Assembly: GCA_964511665.1 (NCBI GenBank)
Contig: CAZEHA010000001.1
Span: forward strand, 24,823 to 88,822
Origin: an uncultured Bacteroidales bacterium
GTDB taxonomy: Bacteria; Bacteroidota; Bacteroidia; Bacteroidales; ML635J-15
Direction: 5' to 3'
DNA length: 64,000 nt
The number at the start of each line of letters is the position of its first letter. Position 1 is the stretch's first letter. The notes under the pieces were generated by a model, which saw only the letters and a program-made list of their open reading frames with translations, was not told the DNA's origin and made no database searches. A program made the position numbers and the translations under genes. Shown piece after piece: positions 1-61,451 of this stretch.

Positions 1-1185
1 TTGAATCTGGTAACCGGAAATACCGAGCCTTATGTAATTATGTGGAGTACCGGAACAACAGGAATGACTACCAATGTGCGCCCACTCACCGACAGTATCT
101 TTACTGCCGTAGTGGTAGATTTTAACAACTGTATCAGCAATCCTGTTCCCATTTCGGTAACAGTACACGACCCAATTGCAATTGCAGTAGAAAGCAACAC
201 AAACTTGGTTTGTCCGGGCGAAACGGTTAGTTTCGATGTGAATATTACAGGTGGTGGTGTTGAAGGTAATCTGGTTTCTATCAATGGTGTTGATTATACT
301 TTACCCGTAAGCTTCATTGTAAATCAAGATACCACGTTTGAGTTTATAGCATGGGATGCTTGTAATTATCAATTTGCAAGAGTGGTTGAACACATCAACA
401 CACATCCCCTGCCGCCAATAAACATTACTGCCGATAAAACCAACGGATGTGCTCCCCTTACAGTATCCTTCCGCGAAAACAGCCCTCATGTAGGTCAAAG
501 TTATATTTGGAACTTCGACGATGGCGATTTCGAAAATCTTTCGTTCGATAAATATCCGGTTCATACTTTTATGAATGCCACAACCTATCATGTAAACCTA
601 CAGGTTACCAACGGCGAAGGCTGCAGCAACGACACCACTATAGGAATTGTTGTATTTCCTGTTCCTGAAGCCGATTTCCGTGCTTCCTCAACAAAAGTAC
701 ACATTGCAAGCCCTGCTGTAAGCTTTACCAACTTTACTGTAGGAGGCTTCTACTTTAACTGGAATTTTGGCGATGGTGCTGCCAGCACACAGGCAAATCC
801 ACAGCATAAGTTTACAATGCCGGGAGTTTATCACGTTACCCTACACACAGAATCGCTATATGGTTGCGTCGACAGTACAGGAGTTGACATTACCGTTACT
901 AACGAAACCATGATATATGCCCCTACAGCCTTTACTCCGAACTACGACCTTATTAACGAAAACTTCAGAATAATTGGCGACGGCATCGACGAGCGCACAT
1001 TTAAAATGGAAATTTACAATCGCTGGGGCGAGAAAATATTCGAAACCACAGAATACGAAACCGGCTGGGATGGCCGATCGAACCTGAAAGAATGTCCTCA
1101 GGGAGTGTATTCGTGGATTATCTATTTCTACGATCCTTTCGGGAATCTCTACACACAAAGCGGGCAGGTAACGCTACTGCGTTAA
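1..1185 (+). CDS. Surface protein fragment (5' end outside the window): PKD repeats plus a T9SS type B (gliding-motility CHU_C-like) C-terminal sorting domain
   Basis: The frame is open from base 1 to the stop at 1183-1185. There are two PKD-like repeats (WNFDDGD..YHVNLQVTNGEGC and WNFGDGA..YHVTLHTESLYGC). The C-terminal IYAPTAFTPN..INE.F...IYNRWGEKIF..GWDG pattern is typical of type B sorting domains. Confidence 0.75.
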   Translation: MNLVTGNTEPYVIMWSTGTTGMTTNVRPLTDSIFTAVVVDFNNCISNPVPISVTVHDPIAIAVESNTNLVCPGETVSFDVNITGGGVEGNLVSINGVDYTLPVSFIVNQDTTFEFIAWDACNYQFARVVEHINTHPLPPINITADKTNGCAPLTVSFRENSPHVGQSYIWNFDDGDFENLSFDKYPVHTFMNATTYHVNLQVTNGEGCSNDTTIGIVVFPVPEADFRASSTKVHIASPAVSFTNFTVGGFYFNWNFGDGAASTQANPQHKFTMPGVYHVTLHTESLYGCVDSTGVDITVTNETMIYAPTAFTPNYDLINENFRIIGDGIDERTFKMEIYNRWGEKIFETTEYETGWDGRSNLKECPQGVYSWIIYFYDPFGNLYTQSGQVTLLR

Positions 1186-26168: not shown

Positions 26169-27221
26169 ATGAGTCATCCTTTTTCGAAAAATCGCAGGGT
26201 AATTCTTGCCTATGCCATTTGCTGGCTTCTGGTTTCGGGAGCCCATTTGGCATTGTTGCTCAGCATTGCCCGTGCCGATGTGGCTGTGGCTATCACCGAC
26301 GCGCTGGTGTACAACACCGTGTTTGCCCTTATAGGCATGGCCATATTCTATGCCACGGCTTATACCGGCCTCGACAAACGCTTTGGCGACATTATATTCA
26401 ACCATATTCTGGCTGCCGTTGCTTTTGTTGGCATATGGCTGCTTACGTCGTATCTGCTAAGCGAAATGCTTTTCTCTATTTTCAACATTGCTTCGCCCGA
26501 TAATGCTTCATGGCTCAGGGTGCGCATACCCATTGGGCTGGCTTACTACATAGTGCTTTCGCTGATGTTTTACCTGATTAAAAGCAACGAAACCGGAAAA
26601 GCAGCAAAGCAAGACATTCTGAAAATGGAATCACAGCTTCGCGAAAGTCAGTTGCAGGCTCTTAAATCGCAAATAAACCCACACTTTTTGTTCAACAGCC
26701 TCAACAGTATTTCGTTTTTGGTAAAATCGAATCCCGACAAGGCCCGCGAAATGCTGTCGGTGCTGTCGGAATATTTCCGCTACAGCCTGAAGCAGCAGTC
26801 GAACACGGCCTTACTGGGCGACGAACTGAACCACTGCCGCAAATATCTCGAAATAGAGAAAATACGTTTTGGCAATAAGCTGCTGTGGACCGAAACCATC
26901 GAAAACAACACCGATGCCATTCCGGTTCCGGCCATGATATTGCAACCTATTTACGAAAACGCCGTGAAACATGGTGTTTACGAAAGCGAGATACCCGTAA
27001 GCATCAATACACACATCAGCCTGCACACAGGCTATGCACTTATCGAAATTGAAAACAATTTCGACCCCGAAGCTCCGGTGCGCAAAGGCGAGGGAGTGGG
27101 GTTGAAAAATGCAGGTGAGCGCCTGAAACTCATGTTTGGTGCCGACGACCTGCTCGAAACCTCGATTACCAACAGTGTTTTTACCGTAAAAATTAGCATT
27201 CCAATACCCCGAATAGTATGA
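26169..27221 (+). CDS. Sensor histidine kinase, LytS/YehU family (His_kinase + HATPase)
   Basis: Multi-TM N-terminus. The INPHFLFNSLNSI H-box is followed by ..ENAVKHG.. and ..GVGLKN... The start abuts the previous stop. Confidence 0.8.
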   Translation: MSHPFSKNRRVILAYAICWLLVSGAHLALLLSIARADVAVAITDALVYNTVFALIGMAIFYATAYTGLDKRFGDIIFNHILAAVAFVGIWLLTSYLLSEMLFSIFNIASPDNASWLRVRIPIGLAYYIVLSLMFYLIKSNETGKAAKQDILKMESQLRESQLQALKSQINPHFLFNSLNSISFLVKSNPDKAREMLSVLSEYFRYSLKQQSNTALLGDELNHCRKYLEIEKIRFGNKLLWTETIENNTDAIPVPAMILQPIYENAVKHGVYESEIPVSINTHISLHTGYALIEIENNFDPEAPVRKGEGVGLKNAGERLKLMFGADDLLETSITNSVFTVKISIPIPRIV

Positions 27222-27955
27222 TACGCTGCATTATTATCGACGACGAAGAACCGGCCCGTATGCTTATAGAAGAATATCTTGAAGCACACGGTGATATTGT
27301 GATAGCTGCCCGTTGTGCCAATGGATTCGAAGGCCTGAAAGCCATACACGAGTTGAAACCCGATTTAGTGTTTCTCGACATACAAATGCCCAAGCTTACC
27401 GGATTCGAAATGCTCGAATTGCTCGAACACCACCCGGCCATAGTGTTTACCACCGCCTTCGACACCTATGCCATGAAAGCTTTCGACAACCATGCCATCG
27501 ACTATCTGCTGAAACCGTTTACGCCCGGGCGCTTTGGCGAAGCACTCGAAAAAACCCGAAAAATTTTGTCGGCCAACACGGCAGCCAACAACAACCAATT
27601 GTTTCTGCAAAGCATGAAAGAATCGAAAGAGATGCTTGAACGCATTGTGGTGAAATCGGGTAAAAAAATTAAGGTACTGCCGGTCGATAGTGTGGTTGCA
27701 ATTGAAGCTGCCGACGACTATGTGCTGATACATACCCGCGACGAACAGTTTGTGAAAAGCGACACCATGAATTACTACGAACAGCACTTGCCTGCCAACG
27801 ATTTTATTAGGGTACACCGTTCGTTTCTCGTTGCTGTGTCGTGCATCGAAAGCATGGAAGCCTATACCAAAGAAACCCATGTGCTAAAGATGAGCAACGG
27901 CATGCAAATAAAAACCAGCCGCAGCGGTTCACAAAAACTGCGACAGATGTTGTAA
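27218..27955 (+). CDS. LytTR-family response regulator
   Basis: REC domain (IIIDDE...DLVFLDIQMP) plus a C-terminal LytTR DNA-binding domain (..DDYVLIHT......FIRVHRSF). There is an ATGA overlap with the kinase gene. Confidence 0.85.
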   Translation: MIRCIIIDDEEPARMLIEEYLEAHGDIVIAARCANGFEGLKAIHELKPDLVFLDIQMPKLTGFEMLELLEHHPAIVFTTAFDTYAMKAFDNHAIDYLLKPFTPGRFGEALEKTRKILSANTAANNNQLFLQSMKESKEMLERIVVKSGKKIKVLPVDSVVAIEAADDYVLIHTRDEQFVKSDTMNYYEQHLPANDFIRVHRSFLVAVSCIESMEAYTKETHVLKMSNGMQIKTSRSGSQKLRQML

Positions 27956-27975
27956 TTGAAAATATTGCATTATTC

Positions 27976-28081
27976 AGCCAGCGTGGTGATTCAACAACCG
28001 CAAAACTGAGGACACTGAGGACACTGAGGACACTGAGGCTCTCGAAGTGCCGAAGTGCCGAAGTGTCGAAGTGTCGAAGCG
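27976..28081. repeat. Left composite arm: terminal CAGCCAGCGTGG, then a 9-mer array (ACTGAGGAC x3 + ACTGAGGCT) and an 8-mer array (CGAAGTG-type x5)
   Basis: Read directly from the sequence. 28005-28040 is four 9-mers. 28042-28081 is TCGAAGTG, CCGAAGTG, CCGAAGTG, TCGAAGTG, TCGAAGCG. Confidence 0.9.
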
Positions 28082-28173
28082 ACAAAACAACATAGCGCTG
28101 ATGAAAAGATTTAGCAGCAACTAAATAGTTTTCATTGCTCTTTTCCATCTGGCACCTTATCTCTGTATGCTAT

Positions 28174-28440
28174 TTATAATTCAGGAAGAATATCAGCAAT
28201 TCCATCTATCAATGCTTTTTTCTTTTTTCGACTCCACCCCTGTATTTGTTTCTCACGGATAAATGCTTCATCAATTCGTTGAAATTCTTCAAAATATACT
28301 AATTTCACTGGCAGGTGTTTCTTGGTATAATTTGCTCCCTCACCATTTTGATGTTGTGCTAATCTCATCTCAATATTTTTTGTGCTTCCTGTATAATAAT
28401 TTCCATTTGCACATTCTAAAATATACACAAATCCCTTCAT
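28174..28440 (-). CDS. GIY-YIG nuclease family protein (small UPF0213/YhbQ-like class)
   Basis: 88 aa. Contains GFVYILEC.NG.YYTGST.N...RL.QH and a C-terminal E...K..GWSR.KK pattern. Confidence 0.85.
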   Translation of the reverse strand: MKGFVYILECANGNYYTGSTKNIEMRLAQHQNGEGANYTKKHLPVKLVYFEEFQRIDEAFIREKQIQGWSRKKKKALIDGIADILPEL

Positions 28441-28523
28441 TTTACCGAATATGAATTAACACCATAAAAATAAAAGATTTTATCAACAACAGGTGGCTCT
28501 ATGCATAATTTTCAATCGACGAG

Positions 28524-28628
28524 GGTTCTTCGGACACTGGGGATTCGTAAAAACAATGGTTGCTTCGAGTGCTTCGAGAGCCTCAGCAACCTCAGCAACC
28601 TCAGCAACTTTAGCGTCCACGCTGGCTG
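28524..28628. repeat. Right composite arm (mirror image of the left arm)
   Basis: Contains GCTTCGAG x2 (28562-28579), CCTCAGCAA x3 (28581-28607) and then ..AGCGTCCACGCTGGCTG. One additional plus-oriented unit, GGTTCTTCGGACACTGGGGATTCG, lies at about 28524-28547. Confidence 0.9.
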
Positions 28629-28675
28629 CATAAAAAGCATATTCCAATTCCATATCCCTTTTTTTTGTTTACTTT

Positions 28676-29938
28676 GTGAAAGAATTAAACCATGATGTAG
28701 TGGATAGTTTTGTATTTGTAGTGTGCGGAGCAAAAGCTTTTATTAGCGAATTGAATTTCTCGCTTCGGTTTTTGCGGCACTTCAGTCAACACCGCATTGT
28801 GGTTCTCACCGACAGCCGCCGCAACGAAATTCCCATCGATCACAACGATATCATCGACGTTGAAACCCCACAGCATCTGGCACACCATCAGGCACACCTC
28901 TGGCTCGAAACACGCCTGCCCGAATATATGAACCTGCAAGCCGGCGACCGCTGCTGCTATCTCGACTCGGATGTGGTAGCCATCAACGAAAAGGTAAACC
29001 ACATATTCTCTCACTATCATGCCCCCATCACTGCAGCATACGACCATTGCAGCATCGACTATTTCAGCGTGGGCGTGGTAAATTGCCAATGTCGCAGCGA
29101 ATTCCAAGAGATAGAAGCACAATTTGCCATGATGCTGAACTATTTCCCCAATATTCAACTAAACGAAGCCCACATACAGCAGCAACACGCAATGCTGAAA
29201 TCGGTATTCCGAAAAATGAAATTCAACCCGTTTGCCGATAAATGCAAAGGTATAGGCTACCTAAAAAAACGCTATCTAAAAAAACACAGCGATATAGTGT
29301 TGAACAACCAATTCCGTTTTTCGTTTGCCGACCACTGCTGGCGCAACATGCAAGGCGACATTATCGATTTCGATTACCCCTATTACTACGGCAAACTAAA
29401 GAAAGAGCACGGCATATACATACGCAACGCCAAATGGTTTCACCGCAGCGGCCGCGAACTGGCGCCTGTTACGCCGCATTGCAGCCACCTGCGGCAGTAT
29501 CTGAAAAAAAACTACGCGGTGAGCATTCCCAACAATTGGCAACACCGCAACGGAGGCGTGTTTTTGTTCGGGCACGAATCGAAAGATTTCTTCGCACAAT
29601 GGCACCAATACACCTTGGCCGAAATAGCAAAAGGCTATATTAAACCCTACGACGACCAGGCCACACTGGCCGTGTGCATGTGGCAACAAGGCATCGAAAA
29701 CAGTAATATATTGCCCGAGGACTTCAATTTTATTGCCGACCACGGCAACAAAAGCATTGGGTACTGCAGCACTAGAGGCTATACACGCAATGCTTTTGCC
29801 ACAAGCTGCAAGCCTGCGCTGCTGCATGTGTACAACGAATGGGGAAACCAAAGCTGGGATATCTGGCAATCGGTGTTGGAAACCGGACGAAAAAACGGCA
29901 TATTGCCAACAAACACCAAAAACTACAACAAGCTATGA
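28676..29938 (+). CDS. Uncharacterised DxD-motif protein, probable GT-A-fold (GT8-like) glycosyltransferase; paralog 1
   Basis: Motifs CYLDSDVVAI (DxD), NGGVFLF and DDQATLAV mimic the GT8 order YLDxD / NsGvll / DQD.LN. It is about 40% identical by eye to the next gene. The start is uncertain: GTG at 28676 or GTG at 28700 (VDSFVFVVCG aligns with MKAFVFVVCG of the paralog). Confidence 0.45.
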   Translation: MKELNHDVVDSFVFVVCGAKAFISELNFSLRFLRHFSQHRIVVLTDSRRNEIPIDHNDIIDVETPQHLAHHQAHLWLETRLPEYMNLQAGDRCCYLDSDVVAINEKVNHIFSHYHAPITAAYDHCSIDYFSVGVVNCQCRSEFQEIEAQFAMMLNYFPNIQLNEAHIQQQHAMLKSVFRKMKFNPFADKCKGIGYLKKRYLKKHSDIVLNNQFRFSFADHCWRNMQGDIIDFDYPYYYGKLKKEHGIYIRNAKWFHRSGRELAPVTPHCSHLRQYLKKNYAVSIPNNWQHRNGGVFLFGHESKDFFAQWHQYTLAEIAKGYIKPYDDQATLAVCMWQQGIENSNILPEDFNFIADHGNKSIGYCSTRGYTRNAFATSCKPALLHVYNEWGNQSWDIWQSVLETGRKNGILPTNTKNYNKL

Positions 29939-31146
29939 AAGCATTTGTATTTGTGGTATGCGGAAGCCGCGAGCATGTCGATACGCTGAACTACAGCCTC
30001 AGGTTCATCAGGCACTTCAGCCGCTACCCCATTGTGGTGCTTACCGACCCCAAACGCAACGAAGTTCCCATAGTGCACAACACAATAATTGAAGTAGAAA
30101 CACCCGAACACTTCGACCACCACCAGGCTAGCATATATCTGAAAACCGGAATTCATAAGTTTCTCGACATGGCGCCGGGTAACATGTACTGCTACCTCGA
30201 CAGCGACATAGTAGCCATAAGCCCCGAAATAAACAGCATATTCGACTACTTTGCCGAGCCGATAATTTTTGCGCCCGACCACTGCCTTTTCGACGAATTC
30301 AGTCCCCACGCCATGAACTGCGGATGCCTGGCCGATACCATCAGGCGCAACAATCAATACAAAGAAGTGGATGCATTTTTTGCTCAAGAATTTTTTAAAA
30401 AACCCTGCAACGAAGAAAAAAAACAAGAACTCGACAGTTTGTTTGCTACCATGAACAAGCCGGGCATTACAAACACATTATACCGATTCATCTACGCTTT
30501 CAAACGATATCTGTTGCCTTTTGCATCGTTTCGGTTTGGTAGTTTCGTATTCAGGCGCAACACACGCATGTGGTTTACAGCACAAGGCGAGTATGTGGGT
30601 TTCGATTTCAAATATTATGCCCGCCAGTTGCGCCGCACTACAGGTCTTCATTTCGATGCCGGTACGGCAACATGGTTCAACTCAGCAGGCGAGAACATTA
30701 TGCCACGGGTAGCACAATGCGACCACCTCAGAAAATACTGCCTCGAAAAATACAACTGCAGCATTCCTGCCGATTGGAACCATTGCAACGGAGGCGTGTT
30801 TTTATTCAACCACCGGTCCATCGATTTTCTCGACTACTGGCACCGGCTTACTCTTGAGGAATTTGCCGACCCACGCACAAAAACACGCGACCAGGCTACA
30901 CTGGCCGTAAGCATGTGGAAATTTGGTCTGCAACACACGGCACGCCTAAAAAAAGAGTTTAATTTTATTACCGAATACGACAACACAAACACTGCCTGGC
31001 ATCCCGACAAAGGCTTCACATACAACGGCTTCAACACTGTGTTTACACCCTATTTTTTACACATCTACCACGAGTGGGGCCACAAGGGCTGGAGCATCTG
31101 GGATTATGTGGAGGAGCTGGTGAAGGAGAAACTTATGAAATTGTAA
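29935..31146 (+). CDS. Uncharacterised DxD-motif protein, probable GT-A-fold glycosyltransferase; paralog 2
   Basis: The ATG at 29935 overlaps the TGA of paralog 1 (ATGA). Shared blocks are FVFVVCG, LN.SLRF.RHFS, VVLTD, VETP.H..HHQA, CYLDSD.VAI, NC.C, C.HLR.Y, NGGVFLF, DQATLAV.MW, FNFI and Y.EWG..W.IW. Confidence 0.45.
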   Translation: MKAFVFVVCGSREHVDTLNYSLRFIRHFSRYPIVVLTDPKRNEVPIVHNTIIEVETPEHFDHHQASIYLKTGIHKFLDMAPGNMYCYLDSDIVAISPEINSIFDYFAEPIIFAPDHCLFDEFSPHAMNCGCLADTIRRNNQYKEVDAFFAQEFFKKPCNEEKKQELDSLFATMNKPGITNTLYRFIYAFKRYLLPFASFRFGSFVFRRNTRMWFTAQGEYVGFDFKYYARQLRRTTGLHFDAGTATWFNSAGENIMPRVAQCDHLRKYCLEKYNCSIPADWNHCNGGVFLFNHRSIDFLDYWHRLTLEEFADPRTKTRDQATLAVSMWKFGLQHTARLKKEFNFITEYDNTNTAWHPDKGFTYNGFNTVFTPYFLHIYHEWGHKGWSIWDYVEELVKEKLMKL

Positions 31147-31219
31147 CATTGGCGAAATAAATATTCCGAAGAACACACACAACATTTAAAACGTGGTGTC
31201 AAACAAATAATCTGGAGTC

Positions 31220-32395
31220 TTAGTATGGGGTGCCTGCAATATAGAACTCGATTTTAATTTCAGTTAACAATTTTGTCAAAACTTCTATTCTTTCATTAAC
31301 GGTGTCAATAGGAATTTTATTTTCGATTAAAGCGGAGTCAGAATTCTCTCCTTCATAATATTTAAGTAAAATAACGTGATTAAAATATTTCTGTTTCAGA
31401 ATTCTTTTAATACTGTTAATATCTTCAGTATCCTCGGTCGGAAATCCAATGATGAAATGTGTTTTTAAAAGGAACTTTGCATTAGCATCTCTAAATCTGG
31501 CAATGCATTTTTCAACATCTTCTACATTGTGTTTTCTCTTCATCAGCTTTAAAACTCTATTAGAAGCTGATTGTAGAGGCATCACTATTTCAACAATTGT
31601 TTTATTCTTAATATATTTAAGGAATGTATCTTGGTATTTTATTGCCCACATAGGGTGTAAGTTATCAATAACCCAACAGACCTTCCCAATTTTCAATTGT
31701 TCCTCGATATTATAACAGTAATCCAATAGGGTTTCAAAAGTTTGCCCACAATCAATCCCAAATGCACCTGTATCGTCGGCATTAAAAATGATCATATCAA
31801 ATCCATCTTCCCTCATTTTCTTGTAATTTCTACCTAAGTTCTCTAAAGAATAGCTCTTTACGGGACCTAAAGCTCTTCTCATTGTACAATAACTACAATT
31901 GTTATTACAGCCCTTGCTACTAATTAGAAGTGCCGGCTTCCTTTTAACTCTTTTGAAAATATTTTTTCGATCATATCTTTCAAACTGATTTAAATAGTAA
32001 TTACCGTATTGGTATTCTTTGTTAAATTCTGATGGTAATGGAATTTCGTTGAATTTAATTTTAAAATTTGGGAAAAGTGTATCGATTAAGTTTTCTAAAT
32101 CCTTTGTTGGAATCATTTCAAAACCAAATCTTTCCCTGAGTAAGTTTGGACTGATGCCTGGAGAACATCCAAGCAGTAGAATTCTTTTTCCTTTTCCTAA
32201 AATGGACTCAACAAAAGTTAAGGTTGATGCTTCAGTTTCGTCTACGACAGAACAAGTGAAAACAGAGACTACATTAGCCTCTTGAAGTGACGATTCTTTG
32301 TAACCATTAATAATAAAATAATCTTTTAACCGTTGCGCCTCAATTGCTCTCATCGGGCATCCTAATATTTCAATATAAAACTTTTGACACTCCAT
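31220..32395 (-). CDS. Radical SAM enzyme of the MiaB/RimO methylthiotransferase family, lacking a TRAM domain
   Basis: The N-terminal UPF0004-like domain has three Cys (LGCPMR, FTCSV, LLGCSP). The radical SAM site is GCNNNCSYC (CX3CX2C). The protein is 391 aa and ends right after the core, leaving no room for the ~60-aa TRAM domain. Confidence 0.65.
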   Translation of the reverse strand: MECQKFYIEILGCPMRAIEAQRLKDYFIINGYKESSLQEANVVSVFTCSVVDETEASTLTFVESILGKGKRILLLGCSPGISPNLLRERFGFEMIPTKDLENLIDTLFPNFKIKFNEIPLPSEFNKEYQYGNYYLNQFERYDRKNIFKRVKRKPALLISSKGCNNNCSYCTMRRALGPVKSYSLENLGRNYKKMREDGFDMIIFNADDTGAFGIDCGQTFETLLDYCYNIEEQLKIGKVCWVIDNLHPMWAIKYQDTFLKYIKNKTIVEIVMPLQSASNRVLKLMKRKHNVEDVEKCIARFRDANAKFLLKTHFIIGFPTEDTEDINSIKRILKQKYFNHVILLKYYEGENSDSALIENKIPIDTVNERIEVLTKLLTEIKIEFYIAGTPY

Positions 32396-32397
32396 AT

Positions 32398-33660
32398 CTA
32401 TTTTTTATTTATTTCCCAGGCCATAATTGGGTTTAATGGTCCAGGAAATGCATCTAACTTTGAAAATATCTGATGTTCTCTCATTTTTAAGTTATCTATC
32501 ATAAGAAAAGAAAATGCTGATTTTATATGTAAAGTTTCAAAATTTTCTTCGCAAGAAATAAAAACATCTGCGCTATATTCATTTGTATTGAAGAGAAATT
32601 TAGGAAATTCGACCGACACACTGTATTCACCTGACTCTTTAATATAAACTTGATCGGCGCTTGATTGTAAGGAATTGGTTGAAAGAAATACAAATCCCAT
32701 GTGAGCAAGATTAACACTTATATTAATTTTGAATTTGTCATTAAACTTCTGAAAAATAAAATCTATTTTAAAGTCTTTTTCCAATTCGATTGCACCTTCT
32801 GGAATTTTTCCATCTTGTGTTACCCCTATGCTAATAATTGAAACACCCATAGGAATAAGAGTTTCATTAATTCGTAATATATCCTTTGGGCTTAATTGCT
32901 TTGAATTTCTGACTATTTGGTGGGTTTCAATGCTTTTTAAATACATTGATATTGTTTGATTTATGTTTCCATTTGAAGAAATTTTACCATTTTCAAGATA
33001 AACAACCTTACTACAAAGTTGCATTATATCGTTTAAGTTATGACTTACAATAATTATTGTTTTTTTTGCAGAAAGCAATTCTAATATTTTTTTTGAGCTT
33101 TTTTGTTGAAAGGCACTATCCCCTACATTTAAAGCTTCGTCAAAAAGCATAATATCGGCATCAATATTAGAAACGAGAGAGAATGCCAATCTGATAAACA
33201 TTCCACTGGAGTAGTGTTTTACAGGAGTATCAATAAAATCGCCTATTTCACTAAATTCAACAATATGCTTAAATCGCTTTTGAATATGCTCTTTATTAAA
33301 ACCCAACAAACTTCCACTAAGAAACACATTTTCTCTACCTGTTAGGTCTGGGTGAAATCCCAGTCCGATTTCTAGGACCGATGCAATGCTTCCAAAAATT
33401 TCAACTTTTCCCGCAGTAGGTTTCGTAATTCCACTTAATATTTTCAGCAATGTACTTTTCCCTGCCCCATTAGGACCAATGATTCCCAAAGATTCTCCTT
33501 TTAAAATTTCTAAAGAAATACCTTCCAGCGCCCAAAACTTTTTTTTGTTTTTAATGTGCAGCAAACCAGTTAATGTAGTGACTTTATTAGTATCAACAAT
33601 CATGTATTGTTTTGAAACACCTGAAATCTTTATTGCAATATTTGAGTTTAGATTTTTCAA
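32398..33660 (-). CDS. Polysaccharide/O-antigen ABC exporter ATPase (Wzt/TagH type) with a ~170-aa C-terminal extension
   Basis: Contains WALEGISLEILKGESLGIIGPNGAGKSTLLK, YSSGMFIRLAFS and MLFDEALNVGDSAFQQK, the typical Wzt/KpsT/TagH signature. The C-terminal beta-rich domain is plausibly a Wzt_C-like glycan-binding module. Confidence 0.8.
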   Translation of the reverse strand: MKNLNSNIAIKISGVSKQYMIVDTNKVTTLTGLLHIKNKKKFWALEGISLEILKGESLGIIGPNGAGKSTLLKILSGITKPTAGKVEIFGSIASVLEIGLGFHPDLTGRENVFLSGSLLGFNKEHIQKRFKHIVEFSEIGDFIDTPVKHYSSGMFIRLAFSLVSNIDADIMLFDEALNVGDSAFQQKSSKKILELLSAKKTIIIVSHNLNDIMQLCSKVVYLENGKISSNGNINQTISMYLKSIETHQIVRNSKQLSPKDILRINETLIPMGVSIISIGVTQDGKIPEGAIELEKDFKIDFIFQKFNDKFKINISVNLAHMGFVFLSTNSLQSSADQVYIKESGEYSVSVEFPKFLFNTNEYSADVFISCEENFETLHIKSAFSFLMIDNLKMREHQIFSKLDAFPGPLNPIMAWEINKK

Positions 33661-34535
33661 ATTAAGTCAGCAATTTTATGTTCAATTTTCTTGAAGTAAA
33701 CAATCCCACTAATAAACAAAATTAATACAGGAATAAAACCAAGTAAATAACGAATATTGGGAACTGCCGAATTTGTAATTGACCATCTCAAACATTCTAA
33801 AACACCTGCCATTGGATTAAAATAAAGGAAAAAATTATATTCCTCAGGAATCATTGTTCCAGGGTAAAAAACAGGAGTAACAAACATACCAAAACCTATT
33901 ATATAGGGGATTATTTGAAAAAAGTCTCGATATCTTATACTGAGCGCGCTGACCCAAAATGTAATTGACAAACCAGTAACAAGTAACATAACAACAATTA
34001 AAGGAAGCATTAAAATATTCACCGTAACAGGAATTTGGTAAAATATCATTAAAACAATTATAATACTAAACCACACCATCAATTCAAACAAACTAACCAA
34101 TGCCTTAGACATGGGCAAAGCAATCTTTGGAAATGCTAGTTTTCTTATCAGATGTTGAGCATTTAATAGAGCCATACCTCCAAAACCTGTGAGATAACTA
34201 AAATTATACCATGCCATTAGGCCAATGCTACAAAAAATGATGTACGGTACTTCTCCAGTAGTAATATGCAGTAAATGACCAAAAAACAGGGTGAAAACAA
34301 TTATACTAACAAAAGCCTGCACATAACTCAGCAAGGGTCCTAGCAAAGTTTGAGCATATCGGCTCTTGAGTTCAATACGAGCAAAAAAGACAATTATCCT
34401 AAAATCGGATACCAAGTTCCTAATATAACACGTAAAAGACACTGGGGTGCTGTCATAAATAATATGATTGTTTTTTTCTTTCATTCTTTCAATCAAGAAA
34501 TGTAAAAATAACATTTTTTTGCGTTCATTTACCAA
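33657..34535 (-). CDS. ABC-2 type polysaccharide exporter permease (Wzm)
   Basis: Six TM helices, with ELKSRYAQTLLGPLLSYVQ typical of the Wzm/TagG N-terminus. There is a 4-nt overlap with wzt. The true start may be an internal Met (MLFLHF or MKEKNN). Confidence 0.75.
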   Translation of the reverse strand: MVNERKKMLFLHFLIERMKEKNNHIIYDSTPVSFTCYIRNLVSDFRIIVFFARIELKSRYAQTLLGPLLSYVQAFVSIIVFTLFFGHLLHITTGEVPYIIFCSIGLMAWYNFSYLTGFGGMALLNAQHLIRKLAFPKIALPMSKALVSLFELMVWFSIIIVLMIFYQIPVTVNILMLPLIVVMLLVTGLSITFWVSALSIRYRDFFQIIPYIIGFGMFVTPVFYPGTMIPEEYNFFLYFNPMAGVLECLRWSITNSAVPNIRYLLGFIPVLILFISGIVYFKKIEHKIADLI

Positions 34536-34637
34536 GATTTACTTCATAATTATTAAGAGGATCATGCAGTTAGATAATCCTCGAAAAACCATGTCTGAAT
34601 AAAGTAAGATAATACTTCATTTTGAATTCTCCCCCCC

Positions 34638-36068
34638 CTACTCCCCCATCACCCCCAAAATAAGTAGAGGTACATCGGTGTTGTCGATAAAGCGGCCAAA
34701 CACTTCGGCGCCTTTGCCTGCGGCAAACACCGGCACAGGGCTGGCTGTGTGGTAGTAGGTGCTGAACCCGATTCCGGCGCGCCGGGCTACAATACGAACG
34801 GCTTCGGCTGCTATGGCCTGGTTGCCGCCATACAATTCGCGCTCTTCGGCTTCGCTCAATTTGGTTTTTCCGGTAGCGTAGTTGTAGGCCGCTTGCAGTG
34901 CCTGCGTTTCGGCAGAACTAAGCTGTACATTTTCGGCAAAAAAATGCTTGCGTAAAAACTGCAACACCGCATCGAAACTATCGCCACGCTGCAACATGGT
35001 TTTCAGTTGCAATTCGGCATATCCTGCCGACATACGCTGCATGTCGAGATGCTGCAGGTGCAAATCGTATTCATACAAACTCATTCCCGGCGACAAGCCT
35101 CCGGTTTCGTGGTCAGAAGTAACCACAATCAAGGTTTCGTCGGGGTGTTTCTTCATAAATTCGAGCGCAACGCCTATGGCCTTGTCGAAATCGATAACTT
35201 CGTGAACTATTGAGGCGGCATCGTTGTAGTGTGCCGCCCAGTCGATAAGGCCGCTTTCGGCCATAATAAAAAAACCGTTGTCGCCATACAAGGCAGCAAT
35301 GGCAGCCTCAAGCAAATGGCTCATGCTATACCCGCCCAGCCTTGCGCGGTCGATACTCAGCGGCATTTCCGATTCGCTCAGCAGCACTTTGTTTATAAGA
35401 ATGCTTTTGTTCGAATAGGCATGCTTCTTTACATCCACCGAATCGCCAATCAGGCTGTAACCGTTGCGCGCAGCAATATCGAGCAAACTTTCCATATCGT
35501 TGTTGCGCCCTGTGTTATAGCGGAAGCCACCACCTGCAAAAAACGGAAAACCGCTTTCGCAGAGTTGCCGGCCTATATCGTAATAGCTGTTACGCTTATC
35601 GGAATGGGCATAAAAAGCAGCCGGAGTGGCGTGGTCGATGCTCACGGTGCTAACTATACCAACCGGGTAGCCTTTTTTGTGAAGTTTGCTAGCTATCGAC
35701 TCGAGGTCGGTCGATTTGTCGGAGCTTTTGCCAAGCACTCCAAATGCGGTTTTTTCACCGCTTGCCAAGGCCGTGCCGGCAGCAGCGCTGCATGTAATCA
35801 GATTGTTGTGGCAATAGGTGCGACACAGCCCCACCACCGGCAAGCTGCTCATAGCCAAAGGCTTCATCAGCGTATCGCCGGCGTTCAGGCCAAGATATGC
35901 CTCGGTAAGAGCCACATGAGTCAGCCCCATGCCATCGCCAATAAACAAAAACACATATTTAATTTTTGGCGCTTCGTCGGGTTGTTTTGCAGTGCACGAA
36001 GCCAAGCAAACCATGCCGATAGAAATAAGGGCAATAATTGCAAAAAAATGTTTTCGGGTTGTTTTCAT
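34638..36068 (-). CDS. Alkaline phosphatase (PhoA family), lipoprotein
   Basis: The start is at the ATG at 36068 (MKTTRKHFFAIIALISIGMVCLASC). Contains FIGDGMG, the SAAAGTALASG active-site region, and DWAAH....SDHETGG metal ligands. Confidence 0.85.
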   Translation of the reverse strand: MKTTRKHFFAIIALISIGMVCLASCTAKQPDEAPKIKYVFLFIGDGMGLTHVALTEAYLGLNAGDTLMKPLAMSSLPVVGLCRTYCHNNLITCSAAAGTALASGEKTAFGVLGKSSDKSTDLESIASKLHKKGYPVGIVSTVSIDHATPAAFYAHSDKRNSYYDIGRQLCESGFPFFAGGGFRYNTGRNNDMESLLDIAARNGYSLIGDSVDVKKHAYSNKSILINKVLLSESEMPLSIDRARLGGYSMSHLLEAAIAALYGDNGFFIMAESGLIDWAAHYNDAASIVHEVIDFDKAIGVALEFMKKHPDETLIVVTSDHETGGLSPGMSLYEYDLHLQHLDMQRMSAGYAELQLKTMLQRGDSFDAVLQFLRKHFFAENVQLSSAETQALQAAYNYATGKTKLSEAEERELYGGNQAIAAEAVRIVARRAGIGFSTYYHTASPVPVFAAGKGAEVFGRFIDNTDVPLLILGVMGE

Positions 36069-36168
36069 CAATCTCGCTCTTTGTTCATTGCAAATGTAAC
36101 TGATTTGGCCATGGTTTGTTGCCAAAAGCTTACTTTTTAAACAAAACATAACATTGCAGGTCTAATAT

Positions 36169-36250
36169 GCAACAAGCGTCCATGCATATGCAGCAAGCGT
36201 CCACGCTTGCTGCGAATCACCCTCTCATGAAGCAAGCACCACGCTTGCTG
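36169..36250. repeat. Three tandem copies of an AGCAAGCG-TCCA-CGCTTGCT-type hairpin module
   Basis: 36190-36213 is GCAGCAAGCG-TCCA-CGCTTGCTGC, a perfect 10-bp stem. 36231-36249 is AGCAAGC-ACCAC-GCTTGCT. A degenerate copy, CAACAAGCGTCCATGCA, lies at about 36170. The core is related to AGCGTCCACGCTGGCTG at 28612-28628. Confidence 0.85.
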
Positions 36251-36288
36251 CCCTGGCACAAGCCAACAGATGAAAAAATCAGCATATA

Positions 36289-36370
36289 GATACATTATGG
36301 ATATTTAAATAAAAAACATTATATTTGTATGGATAAATTATGGATACATTATGGATAAATATTTAAATAA
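36289..36370 (+). repeat. ~25-bp direct repeat duplicating the fic start-codon region
   Basis: GATACATTATGGATATTTAAATAAA (36289-36313) matches GATACATTATGGATAAATATTTAAATAAA (36343-36370). The second copy contains the fic ATG at 36351. Confidence 0.8.
36320..36327 (+). promoter_or_regulatory. -7 box TATATTTG for fic
   Basis: Matches TAnnTTTG, 24 nt upstream of the ATG at 36351. Confidence 0.4.
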
Positions 36371-37421
36371 ATTAAACTTTGACTTCCACACTAATCAGTT
36401 GATTATAAAATCAATAAGCTTCATTGACTCTTTCAAAGGAAAATGGAATGTTGTAGAAAGCAAAGAAAATATCTTTCTTAAAGAATTAAGGAAAATCGCC
36501 ACCATTGAAAGTATTGGGTCCTCAACTAGAATTGAAGGGGCTCAGCTAACCAACGAAGAGATAAAACAACTCCTCGATAATGTAAAAATAACAGAGTTAA
36601 AATCAAGGGATGAACAAGAAGTGGTGGGTTATTATGATGTGCTCGAAATTATCAATGAGAACTATGATAACATTAGCATATCGAAAAACTATATTCAACA
36701 ATTGCATCAGAATTTATTAAAGTATAGCACTAAAGATGATAGACATAGGGGAATTTACAAAAATTTGTCAAATAAAGTTGTTGCAAAATATCCCGATGGT
36801 ACCCAAAGGGTAATTTTTGACACAACTGAGCCTCACCTTGTTGAAAGTGAAACGAACTACCTGTTTGAGTGGATAAATGAACAGTTTAATTCAAAATCGC
36901 TTCACCCTTTAATTGTTATTGGATTATTTATTTATGAATTTTTATCGATACATCCCTTTCATGACGGGAATGGAAGGTTGTCAAGATTATTAACAAATCT
37001 CTTGCTACTTAAAAACGACTACGTATTCATTAAATATGTATCGTTTGAAAACTTAATTGAGCAGAAAAAAAAGACCTACTATGAAGCACTAATGGATGGA
37101 CAAAAGGATAGAAATTCTGAAAAAGAAAGAGTTGACAAATGGATGCTTTTCTTTTTACAATCCCTTGAAGCGTTAATCCACCGGTTGGAACAAAAATATG
37201 ATGTATTTAAAACTAAAGGTGGTTATCTGAATGAAAGACAAAAGAAAATAAAAGAATTTATAACAATCAATCAACCAATTAAATTATCTGACTTAATGAA
37301 CAGTATGCCCGATATTTCGATAAACACGCTAAAGAAAGATCTACAGTATATGAAGAATGAGCAAATAATTTTATCGATTGGCAAAAACAAGGGAACTATT
37401 TATGTATTGAACGACAATTAA
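36351..37421 (+). CDS. Fic family protein (class II, with an intramolecular inhibitory helix; probable AMP-transferase) and a C-terminal wHTH-like region
   Basis: The canonical Fic motif HPFHDGNGRLSR is present. An upstream STRIEG matches the inhibitory motif [ST]xxxE[GN]. The gene is AT-rich. Confidence 0.85.
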   Translation: MDKYLNKLNFDFHTNQLIIKSISFIDSFKGKWNVVESKENIFLKELRKIATIESIGSSTRIEGAQLTNEEIKQLLDNVKITELKSRDEQEVVGYYDVLEIINENYDNISISKNYIQQLHQNLLKYSTKDDRHRGIYKNLSNKVVAKYPDGTQRVIFDTTEPHLVESETNYLFEWINEQFNSKSLHPLIVIGLFIYEFLSIHPFHDGNGRLSRLLTNLLLLKNDYVFIKYVSFENLIEQKKKTYYEALMDGQKDRNSEKERVDKWMLFFLQSLEALIHRLEQKYDVFKTKGGYLNERQKKIKEFITINQPIKLSDLMNSMPDISINTLKKDLQYMKNEQIILSIGKNKGTIYVLNDN

Positions 37422-37463
37422 GCACGTGCCCTGACATGGGGAGTAGCCAATGCCCCTTCTGCA

Positions 37464-37508
37464 TTCGGGCACTGAGGTTCTTTCGGGCACTGAGGTTCTC
37501 GAAGTGCC
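37464..37508 (+). repeat. Direct repeat TTCGGGCACTGAGGTTC x2 followed by TCGAAGTGCC
   Basis: Copies lie at 37464-37480 and 37482-37498, then 37499-37508. These are the same CACTGAGG / CGAAGTGCC words as the arms around the GIY-YIG gene. Confidence 0.85.
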
Positions 37509-37580
37509 CCTCCCCCTCCAAGCCACCGGCACACAACTCGTAGCTAATTTGGGGCTAATATTTTACACTTCACTCTCGCT

Positions 37581-37670
37581 CCGAGTCACCGACACGGGAC
37601 TCGGAGCTAATTATGGCGAAGGCTTTAAGGAATACGCTTACACCCGAGTCCTCTGCGAGTGACTCGGGTG
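37581..37670. repeat. Two GC-rich hairpins sharing a CCGAGTC/GACTCGG core
   Basis: CCGAGTC (37581-37587) pairs with GACTCGG (37598-37604). CACCCGAGTC (37641-37650) pairs with GACTCGGGTG (37661-37670), a 10-bp stem with a 10-nt loop. Confidence 0.8.
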
Positions 37671-37751
37671 GGGACAGCGATCATATTCCACTCGTTTTCC
37701 GGTTGAGCTTGCGAAACTCCCACTATCATCCTGCCGGCAAAAAATTCTGTA

Positions 37752-37845
37752 TTCATTCGCGCATTCGCGGCCACCAAAAAGTTGAGCCCGCGAAACAAAA
37801 AAACTTCATTCGCGCATTCGCGGCCATCAAAACACTTAAGCCCGC
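37752..37845 (+). repeat. ~41-bp imperfect direct repeat (TTCATTCGCGCATTCGCGGCCAyCAAAA...AGCCCGC) x2
   Basis: Copies start at 37752 and 37805. The first 22 nt are identical and the remainder is similar with one indel. Confidence 0.8.
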
Positions 37846-37975
37846 ACCATAGCTGCAACCCCATCAAACCGAAAAGCCTTCCCAAAAAACCACATTACCA
37901 ATCACAAAAAAGCTGTTTCGCAGAATATCACTCTTTTTTTGAGCATCAAATACATCAGAATTGCCCGCAGTTTGT

Positions 37976-37983
37976 TATTTTTG
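37976..37983 (+). promoter_or_regulatory. -7 box TATTTTTG for cysS
   Basis: Matches TAnnTTTG, 25 nt upstream of the ATG at 38008. Confidence 0.4.
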
Positions 37984-38007
37984 GGGTTTCTTTTAAAACA
38001 AAACATC

Positions 38008-39480
38008 ATGAGCCTCGAGCATTCGCTGTATATTTACAACACCCTGAACCGAAAGAAAGAATTGTTTGTTCCGCTTCACACGCCCCATGTAGGCATGTAT
38101 GTGTGCGGCCCCACCGTGTATGGCGATGCCCATCTGGGGCATGCCCGCCCGGCGATTAACTTCGATTTACTCTTTCGTTTTCTGAAATATTCGGGCTACA
38201 AAGTTCGCTATGTGCGCAATATTACCGATGTGGGTCATCTCGAAAACGATGCCGACGATGGCGAAGACAAAATTGCCAAAAAGGCTCGCCTCGAAGCACT
38301 CGAGCCTATGGAAGTGGTGCAATATTACACCGACCGCTACCACATAAACATGGATGCGCTCAACGTGTTGCGCCCCAGCATCGAGCCCAGGGCATCGGGG
38401 CATATCATCGAACAAATCGAGCTCACAAAACGCATTATCGACAACGGATATGCATACGTGTTAAACGGCTCGGTATATTTCGACGTAGATGCTTTCAATA
38501 AAAAATTTAACTACGGCCGTTTGTCGGGTCGCGTAATCGAAGACCTGTATAGCACTACCCGTGAACTCGACGGCCAAAGCGAAAAACGCAAGAGCTACGA
38601 TTTTGCCTTATGGAAAAAAGCCGCGCCATCGCACATTATGCACTGGCCCTCGCCATGGAGCGAAGGCTTTCCGGGATGGCACATGGAATGCTCGGCCATG
38701 GGGATGAAATATCTCGGCGAAGAATTCGATATACACGGAGGCGGCATGGACTTGCTGTTTCCGCACCACGAATGCGAAGTGGCGCAAAGTGCTGCTGCTT
38801 TGGGTAAAGACACCGTGCGCTACTGGATGCACAACAACATGATAACCATAAACGGACAAAAAATGGGCAAGTCGCTGGGCAACTTTATTACCCTCGACGA
38901 AGTGTTCGGCGGTAAGCACGAATTGTTGGCTCAAGCCTACAGCCCCATGACCGTTCGGTTTTTCATACTGATGGCGCACTACCGCGGCACACTCGACTTT
39001 TCGAACGAAGCCCTGCAGGCTGCCGAAAAAGGGCTGAACCGCTTACTCAAAGGAATGGCCTTACTGCAAAAAATCAATGCTTCGGCCCAAACATCACACT
39101 TTAAACCCGAAGCATTCGAAACAAAACTAAAAGATGCACTTAACGACGACCTGAACAGCCCTGTGCTGATAGCTCACCTCTTCGACGGACTAAAAAGCAT
39201 CAACAATATAAATCAGGGTAGCGAAACCATCAGCGAAAGCGACCTCAACAGTTTGAAAAAGATATATCACACCTACGTTACCGATATTTTGGGCTTGCTG
39301 CCACAAGAAGAAAACAATCAGGAAATACTAAAAAACCTGGTTGATATGGTACTCAATATCCGCCTCGAGGCCAAACGAAACAAAGACTTTGCCCTTTCCG
39401 ACACCATCAGAAACCGGCTCGGTGAGTTGGGCATTGCGGTGCGCGACAGCAAAGACGGCTTTGAATGGGAAATACAATAA
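38008..39480 (+). CDS. cysS: Cysteine--tRNA ligase
   Basis: Has the HIGH motif ([10 protein letters not shown]), KMSKS as KMGKSLGN, and [19 protein letters not shown]. The start is set at [12 protein letters not shown]. Confidence 0.9.
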
Positions 39481-61282: not shown

Positions 61283-61346
61283 GCAACACAAATTTTGTTG
61301 CAAATTTTACAAAATAAAACGGAATAGCGAAATAATATCATCGATT

Positions 61347-61435
61347 CCCCGTAGAGACGCGATTTATCGCGTCTCAAACCAACCCAACAATTATTATCCG
61401 TTTAATCAGACGCGATAAATCGCGTCTCTACGGGG
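61347..61435. repeat. Perfect 28-bp inverted repeat with nested palindromes (REP/MITE-like)
   Basis: CCCCGTAGAGACGCGATTTATCGCGTCT (61347-61374) and its exact reverse complement (61408-61435) are separated by 33 nt. Each arm contains its own palindrome, GAGACGCGAT-TT-ATCGCGTCTC. Confidence 0.9.
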
Positions 61436-61451
61436 TTTTGTTCAAAAACCA

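Follow-up and report, generated by a model that had tools for sequence, protein, structure and literature searches.

The REPtrons of Proteobacteria (E. coli, Pseudomonas, Stenotrophomonas), in which repetitive extragenic palindromes (REPs) or bacterial interspersed mosaic elements accompany the gene for a REP-associated tyrosine transposase (RAYT), are a close described counterpart of the element considered here. This is a triple hairpin at positions 36169-36251 of a 64-kb stretch of DNA (64,000 nucleotides, hereafter the window) from an uncultured Bacteroidales bacterium (GenBank assembly GCA_964511665.1, contig CAZEHA010000001.1), lying between a phoA-like alkaline phosphatase gene and a fic gene. 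In both systems a short palindrome rich in GC is dispersed in many extragenic copies, mostly behind genes, with regularly spaced tandem clusters and with sub-families that show compensatory stem changes. Both also have a gene for a single-domain HUH-Y1 transposase with the same palindromes on its flanks; for the present family this gene is found in relatives of the window's organism. In contrast to the proteobacterial REPs, the family here has no GTAG/GTGG foot, and flanks of the form AT-GCAG...CTGC-AT extend its stem, which is perfect over 10-12 bp and closed by a 4-nt loop. Its copy number is apparently low (tens), and its clusters are mostly direct rather than alternating.

A second counterpart is TnpA_REP subclass 2.6 (Bertels RAYT group 5), described by Quentin et al. 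(2018; PMC6006769) as Bacteroidetes-specific, with motifs NH[LIV]H, WQ and YIH[QN]NP and a length of ~179 aa. [quoted passage not shown] The RAYTs associated with our palindrome have the same motifs and host phylum, are 174-175 aa long, and are likewise flanked by hairpins without GTAG that recur elsewhere. The difference is that in the window the RAYT slot is taken by a GIY-YIG nuclease cassette, and the likeness is one of description, as PMC6006769 gives no consensus for comparison. We consider it very probable that the triple hairpin is a small cluster of REPs, and that a tyrosine (HUH-Y1) transposase, namely a RAYT/TnpA_REP of the type of Bacteroidetes subclass 2.6, has spread the family in this Bacteroidales lineage.

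Three copies of one palindrome lie between phoA and fic

The sequence at 36169-36251 consists of three copies of one palindrome in tandem and in identical orientation. An earlier note on this DNA had described three consecutive modules, one with a perfect 10-bp stem and TCCA loop at 36190-36213, and this is borne out. The features of the locus are as follows.

36169-36187, plus strand: REP copy 1, decayed; GCAaCAAGCGTCCA then TGCAT, also written GCAACAAGCGTCCA-TGCAT
36188-36215, plus strand: REP copy 2, intact; core at 36190-36213; AT as 5' flank, matching the family consensus
36229-36251, plus strand: REP copy 3, variant; GAAGCAAGC-ACCA-CGCTTGCTGC, with the stem shortened to 7 bp and a changed loop
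34638-36068, minus strand: alkaline phosphatase gene, phoA-like (Pfam PF00245); start codon 101 nt from REP copy 1
36351-37421, plus strand: fic gene (Fic/DOC domain), low GC (Pfam PF02661, 59.2 bits)

The 24-nt core of copy 2, GCAGCAAGCG-TCCA-CGCTTGCTGC, forms a perfect 10-bp stem with a 4-nt loop, and identical hairpins are found beside the RAYT genes of loci L045/L090/L094 and again in L026, L081, L082, L087, L098 and L099. Copy 1 differs from the 30-nt family consensus nATGCAGCAAGCGTGGACGCTTGCTGCATn at one substituted base and lacks 7 nt (CGCTTGC) of the 3' stem, while the reverse complement of copy 3 begins with 18 nt (GCAGCAAGCGTGGTGCTT) that also start the 'stuffed REPs' of L069/L099 described below. 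The spacing of the copies is irregular. When folded as single-stranded DNA, 36160-36262 gives three hairpins at -24.9 kcal/mol (z = -4.6), which none of 200 shuffles matched.

Within the window these sequences are rare. A 20-mer searched with up to three mismatches is unique to the hairpin cluster (expected 0.01), and of the six matches to the half-site GCAGCAAGCGTGG at up to two mismatches, five fall at the cluster and the GIY-YIG unit (shuffle mean 0.66). The word AGCGTCCACGCT has two exact matches, at 36196 and 28612 (expected 0.10; two were reached in 1 of 100 shuffles), confirming that the cluster shares its core word with the right end of the GIY-YIG unit. The further likeness that had been proposed between GAATCACC...ACCACGCTTGCTG and the left-arm terminus of that unit holds when a 16-nt insertion is allowed and fails otherwise. 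An Rfam search (E <= 1) of 27000-39000 returned nothing relevant and no match to the hairpins, and no tRNA or tmRNA was detected near the cluster. A CRISPR array was also considered and rejected, since the spacing in the window is irregular, the 'spacers' of L026 are themselves repeated, and there is no Rfam or CRISPR-type match.

The palindrome is dispersed and its stem covaries

We scanned one genome per species (185,579 species, 596 Gb, both strands) with the shared 18-mer GCAGCMAGCGTGGACGCT, which matched 56 stretches. Fifty-two of these were single matches in unrelated, mostly high-GC taxa, consistent with the ~35 chance matches that we estimate. The metagenome-assembled genome (MAG) 'Bacteroidales bacterium Go_SlDig_bin_437' (JAGOLH01) gave seven exact matches on four contigs, and at least ten palindrome copies on these contigs when mismatches are allowed, the scan having required an exact 18-mer. 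In L026 four copies follow an AraC-like gene with a 74-75-nt period, which is also seen in the clusters of L078/L096. A palindrome scan of metagenomes, the counts from which are lower bounds, added 32 further stretches, nearly all of them contigs of 36-49% GC from sludge or digesters. These comprise the same MAG loci from other samples and new loci bearing stem sub-families (GCAGCCAGCG/CGCTGGCTGC, GCAGTAAGCG/CGCTTACTGC, GCAGACAGCG/CGCTGTCTGC and others), and the consensus of the family is nATGCAGCAAGCG TGGA CGCTTGCTGCATn, again without a GTAG foot.

The stem is maintained by paired changes. Among 39 distinct copies, filtered at >=8/10 stem matches, double changes that preserve pairing were seen at 6 of 12 stem pairs (27 cells), an example being A:T to C:G in 12 copies. 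Covariation scored 0.164, compared with 0.067 for shuffled sequences (0 of 500 as high) and at most 0.042 with slid partners.

The placement of the copies is the pattern reported for REPs in PMC3733652. No copy at the ~20 distinct loci of relatives falls within a gene of the lineage; ~7 sites are convergent, ~5 co-directional and 2-3 divergent, the last being the window and RAYT loci only. Most copies stand 12-250 nt behind the stop codons of ordinary genes, and most sites are without a GC step. In its own 64 kb the window holds one cluster and two half-REPs. The tetranucleotide profiles of L069 and L079 correlate with that of the window at r = 0.965-0.970, compared with 0.963 between the two halves of the window itself; both loci come from sister samples of those with the window's organism, and both carry A- and C-variants of the palindrome. 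Judged by composition, the family is probably dispersed in the window's own species.

The palindrome adjoins RAYT genes in relatives

In L045/L090/L094, a 175-aa open reading frame (ORF) has two hairpins at distances of 85 and 211 nt from its start. NCBIfam NF047646 ('REP-associated tyrosine transposase', an equivalog model with a cutoff of 80) gives the L045 ORF 93.7 bits; the ORF also has a Pfam Y1_Tnp match and carries the motifs SNHIHL, QFWQ and NYIHQNP, in agreement with subclass 2.6 in motifs, length and host phylum. L071/L112 encode a RAYT 78% identical to that of the MAG with REPs on both sides, and L154 encodes one 74% identical, with a REP-like palindrome at the start of the sequence, upstream of the gene. 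The palindrome thus adjoins each of three diverged RAYT genes, homologues of which carry the name 'REP element-mobilizing transposase RayT' in their sources. In L014 and L075, RAYT 3' remnants adjoin REP triplets. These remnants (L014 1070-1135, L075 54-116) are 60-nt pieces of the RAYT 3' end with 95% protein identity over 21 aa, and their sequence suggests a second, degraded REPtron copy in the JAGOLH01-type genome.

These data support a model drawn from the established RAYT/REP system (PMC3333891, PMC2817692, PMC3116915). The palindrome would fold as a hairpin on single-stranded DNA, where the RAYT would recognise, cut and rejoin it, and this would seed dispersed and tandem copies in intergenic DNA. 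By the same analogy, catalysis by the RAYT is presumed, and any effect of the repeats on phoA or fic expression would be a further supposition. The phoA-fic cluster would then be a passive selfish repeat, with one intact and two decaying copies, and not what defines the fic islet.

Several points weigh against this interpretation. No RAYT is found in the 64-kb window by tblastn, and the samples of the RAYT homologues P0186 and P0188 do not overlap with those listed for the window's contigs. Dispersal is seen in a related MAG and in metagenome contigs whose assignment is compositional. The window's copy occupies a promoter region between divergent genes, an unusual location for a REP. The filter at >=8/10 stem matches inflates 'percent paired', yet it does not create the compensatory types. 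Finally, the canonical 5' GTAG foot of classical REPs is absent, although this is the expected exception for the 'atypical' structures of subclass 2.6, and speaks against membership of the GTAG super-family rather than against RAYT association.

A GIY-YIG unit occupies the slot of a relative's REPtron

The second site of the palindrome in the window is a GIY-YIG unit, bounded by two partial REPs.

28174-28440, minus strand: GIY-YIG nuclease gene, 88 aa, UPF0213-type (Pfam PF01541, 71.8 bits; PDB 1zg2, 1ywl)
27975-27986, plus strand: REP 5' half CAGCCAGCGTGG, C-variant; outer left end of the unit
28001-28090, plus strand: left arm proper; tandem 9-mers CTGAGGACA x3 and CGAAGTGYC x4; module core CTGAGGCTCTCGAAG at 28033-28047
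28560-28611, plus strand: right arm proper; CTTCGAGNG x2, CCTCAGCAA x3; module core CTTCGAGAGCCTCAG at 28572-28586
28612-28629, plus strand: REP without its first 6 nt, AGCG-TCCA-CGCTGGCTGC, C-variant; outer right end of the unit

The left arm starts with CAGCCAGCGTGGTGATTC (27975-27992), and the right arm terminates in AGCGTCCACGCTGGCTGC (28612-28629). The right arm is the inverted counterpart of the left (33-nt arms, 82% complementary), and both arms proper consist of CTGAGG and CTCGAAG words.

The orthologous locus of a relative is represented by L071, and at greater length by L112-L116 from other samples. L071 2-993 aligns with window 29617-28625 at 87% identity and L071 1845-2014 with window 27984-27815 at 95%, the latter alignment stopping inside the half-REP. 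Between these flanks, L071 holds a REP, a second REP, a 'stuffed' REP, the RAYT gene and more REPs, while the same slot in the window holds the left arm, the GIY-YIG gene and the right arm. By position, the half-REP at 27975-27986 is the orthologue of the REP that comes first after the LytTR gene in the REPtron of the relative, and the truncated REP at 28612-28629 that of the outermost REP, where L071 has the full GCAGCCAGCGTCCACGCTGGCTGCAT. Given that both also keep the orientation of the outer REPs of L071 (TGG on the left, TCCA on the right), the words at the arm ends are REP relics rather than the cassette's own ends. The alignments show that one content has replaced the other at an orthologous locus, and we infer that the direction was from RAYT to GIY-YIG. 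The earlier claim that a single dispersed repeat family includes the termini of the GIY-YIG unit is therefore upheld, with REPtron history as the explanation of the kinship.

On this reading, the GIY-YIG locus would formerly have been a REPtron, the interior of which, including the RAYT, was replaced by a cassette bringing its own hairpin module, so that the outer REP halves were left. One intact and two decayed copies at phoA-fic, together with the emptying of the sole identifiable RAYT slot, are compatible with a family that is no longer renewed in this genome. In other samples, the contigs of the window's organism terminate within the arm and mosaic repeats, as would be expected of multi-copy sequences.

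Other mobile DNA is known to target REP clusters (PMC1525189). The unit, like the 'stuffed REPs', resembles the REP-targeting insertion sequences IS1397 and ISPpu9/10 (PMC1525189, PMC8450116) in being mobile DNA in or between REPs with split REP halves at its borders. Unlike these insertion sequences, the unit encodes a GIY-YIG nuclease rather than a DDE or IS110 transposase, it would have replaced the RAYT itself, and no target-site duplication is evident at the window unit.

A related arrangement was observed in L084 1-900 (Ga0334884_1001040), where two direct repeats 772 nt apart enclose a GIY-YIG gene (221-484, minus strand) of 62% identity. Each repeated segment is at least 125 nt long and includes a REP (78-99, 850-871), so that the locus looks like a tandem duplication of a REP-plus-cassette unit.

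Extra DNA at phoA-fic and the question of integration sites

The earlier note read the repeats as att-like sites of integration or recombination, marking the borders of low-GC cargo (fic, the GIY-YIG gene) that inserts through them. Low-GC genes do adjoin both REP sites in the window. GC is ~0.47-0.55 in phoA and 0.30-0.33 in fic, and the step is real, but the cluster, described as sitting at this junction, lies between divergent genes, upstream of both phoA (minus) and fic (plus) and behind neither. In the distant relative L101 (PhoA 57% identical), the only informative one for the phoA-fic-cysS locus, cysS and phoA are immediate divergent neighbours 99 nt apart, whereas the phoA-cysS gap in the window is 1939 nt (36069-38007). 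It follows that the window has ~1.9 kb of extra DNA here, made up of the REP cluster, fic and a repeat mosaic of 590 nt. The replacement of the DNA between two REPs by the GIY-YIG cassette, and the targeting of REPs by the insertion sequences noted above, also favour such sites.

Despite this, we regard att-like integration sites as unlikely. The ~20 loci in relatives, mostly behind or between ordinary genes and usually without a GC step, show no general link between the family and GC steps, so that a role as border marker of low-GC cargo is not sustained. The REPs adjoin fic only on its left, and a comparison of 36150-36360 with 37400-37960 found no direct or inverted repeat above shuffle level, the best local alignment across the fic borders scoring 20, where shuffles average 18 and have their 95th percentile at 23. 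No att-like repeats or target-site duplication were found around fic, and no integrase or recombinase was found among the neighbouring ORFs scanned for domains or the Pfam hits of nearby genes. The flanking of RAYT genes, on the other hand, accounts for the repeats without any cargo. This hairpin, which flanks RAYT genes and mostly stands behind ordinary genes, is the REP of the lineage, the possibility that the earlier note had itself set against its proposal. What survives of the recombination-site idea is that REP clusters are known landing spots and that both window sites adjoin low-GC inserted genes.

In the close relative L100 (PhoA 93% identical), homology upstream of phoA reaches window position ~36161, after which the contig stops with ...CTGCAT, the last letters of a REP. 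The break falls within a REP immediately upstream of phoA, so that the REP is common to both at that spot. In the RAYT-bearing relative L112, synteny with the window is lost before phoA.

A second hairpin module accompanies GIY-YIG genes

Mixed in with the REPs is a second repeat, a hairpin with a conserved 15-nt loop, CTGAGS-NN-STCGAAG, and a freely covarying stem of 4-6 bp; variants have a 3-4-nt spacer, such as CTTCGACTCCGCTCAG. Besides the arms of the GIY-YIG unit, the module occurs at the following places.

37464-37509, plus strand: GIY-type module right of fic; GGGCA-CTGAGGTTCTCGAAG-TGCCC at 37485-37509, with a truncated direct copy at 37464-37481
L069 7554-7600 and 7685-7731, L099 2276-2322, L071 ~1107-1152: 'stuffed REPs', GCAGCAAGCGTGGTG-CTTCGAGAACCTCAG-CAACTAAGCTTGCTGC, a GIY-type module nested in the loop of a RAYT-type REP
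L103 2952-3433, L105 2763-3331, L111 2960-3378, and the gene flanks of L148, L149 and L151: modules at GIY-YIG genes of other organisms

The module right of fic is without a GIY-YIG gene, and its loop is identical to those of the modules that L105 and L111 have on the flanks of their GIY-YIG genes. The 'stuffed REPs' look as if one hairpin repeat had been inserted into the other.

The window GIY-YIG protein belongs to a family of over 5000 clusters (E <= 1e-10), and many of these, across phyla, share 74-83% identity with it. We sampled six unrelated loci starting from the GIY-YIG gene (L103, L105, L111, L148, L149, L151). The module or its 3-4-nt-spacer variant lies within ~100 nt of the gene in all six, and on both sides in five, while the RAYT-type palindrome was found in none of them. 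The hosts of module-flanked UPF0213-type genes include Bacteroidota, Leptospirales, Ca. Kuenenia and others, and solo copies of the module occur too. In three of the six loci (L105, L111, L149), the gene sits inside a type I restriction-modification operon, between hsdM/hsdS/hsdR. In L111 a Y1_Tnp/Bac_DnaA_C protein is encoded immediately upstream.

When instances were picked by loop only, the module stems gave a covariation score of 0.483, compared with 0.156 for shuffles (none of 500 as high) and at most 0.20 when slid. A single-protein query of viral contigs returned no GIY-YIG relatives, and a profile query gave 30 distant (31-49%) phage GIY-YIG genes that served as a negative control, the 95 kb surrounding them containing no module. 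A search of the literature, of which coverage was incomplete, found nothing linking GIY-YIG/UPF0213 genes to REP-like repeats.

These observations bear on whether the palindrome itself might belong to the GIY-YIG element, as its terminal inverted repeat or nuclease target, instead of being a RAYT substrate. The window unit ends in two inverted half-copies, the L084 gene lies between two direct copies of REP plus flanks, and GIY-type modules are nested in the REP stems of L069, L071 and L099. However, the six loci sampled from other organisms have the CTGAG..TCGAAG-type module and no palindrome, most REP copies have no GIY-YIG gene nearby, and the palindrome stands beside three diverged RAYT genes, all of which makes such ownership improbable.

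A different question is whether the UPF0213-type GIY-YIG gene and the CTGAGS-N2-4-STCGAAG hairpin together form an undescribed selfish system of nuclease plus cognate hairpin, either an analogue of RAYT/REP or a hairpin-targeted homing element. We put this forward tentatively, as a possibility that is at present more doubtful than probable. Such a system would move across phyla, given the 74-83% protein identity between Bacteroidota, Leptospirales and Ca. Kuenenia, and would land in type I restriction-modification operons and REP loops, leaving solo modules such as the 'stuffed REPs' and the module right of fic. In the window it would have evicted the resident RAYT from its own REPtron, and the triple hairpin and the fic flank would be a contact zone of two competing hairpin-repeat systems. 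The nearest described comparison is with free-standing GIY-YIG homing endonuclease genes, as for the Seg proteins of phage T4, which likewise are small nuclease genes present as extra inserts among conserved genes. In contrast to these, the window protein type consists of the ~80-aa catalytic domain only (UPF0213), without a DNA-binding extension, and its gene is flanked by its own conserved-loop hairpin repeats, which the distant phage homologues lack. The association of GIY-YIG genes with the hairpin is a more novel lead than the REP cluster.

The hairpins in relation to phoA and fic expression

No T-run follows the hairpins at 36169-36251, and by-eye reading places a Bacteroidetes-type -7 box (TACATTTG) between them and the phoA start, a position that suggests that they are outside the phoA transcript. 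An RNA-level element (intrinsic terminator or mRNA stabiliser) or a protein operator for phoA and/or fic is very unlikely: the hairpin is strong, REPs elsewhere serve as terminators or stabilisers (PMC6006769), and most family members stand just behind stop codons, so that the family may have such side effects, but here the hairpins are upstream of two genes transcribed away from them, lack a T-tract, coincide with no called terminator-like site, have the -7 box on the phoA side, and recur with identical sequence at unrelated loci, which excludes a locus-specific operator. The earlier view that they are not ordinary terminators was correct.

Four (C/A)ATTATGGATA copies at 36293-36360, 10-43 nt apart, straddle the annotated fic start. 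They provide alternative in-frame ATGs, and the true start and promoter of fic are consequently uncertain.

Other repeats and variable regions

A second, canonical REP family is present at 61346-61436, where two inverted copies, CCCC-GTAG-AGACGCGAT-TT-ATCGCGTCT, lie 33 nt apart between two co-directional genes. This GTAG-footed doublet is REPIN-like, with 28-nt arms that are 100% complementary, and a related copy at L074 205-232 adjoins a GCAGTAAGCG-type REP.

To the right of fic, 37510-37850 is a mosaic of further hairpin repeats. It includes a 63-nt-period unit with CCGAGTC-N10-GACTCGG hairpins at 37510-37670 and two copies of TTCATTCGCGCATTCGCGGCCAYCAAAA, at 37752 and 37805. Window 37568-37674 recurs at ~75% identity in L078, L093 and L096, and L079 and L093 carry long intergenic arrays of related CGGACTTCGAG / CACCTCGATAC modules.

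A second low-GC block (0.28-0.37) with radical-SAM and ABC-transporter genes spans 31100-34600, and no REP was seen at its borders. The relative L112 has other genes at this position, so that this polysaccharide-type region varies between close relatives.

Implications

The REP cluster as such is routine, an ordinary kind of element rather than a special integration site. The comparison does, however, make a consensus and sub-families explicit for the 'atypical' REPs of the Bacteroidetes RAYT subclass 2.6, which are poorly described, and the repeats account for the breaks in this organism's metagenome contigs at these places. The exchange of a RAYT for a GIY-YIG gene within a REPtron bears on the persistence and decay of REP families after RAYT loss. 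If the GIY-YIG gene and its hairpin do prove to be a mobile nuclease-hairpin system, this would bring a second, non-HUH class of enzyme into the biology of REP-like repeats, and would assign a role to the large UPF0213 family.

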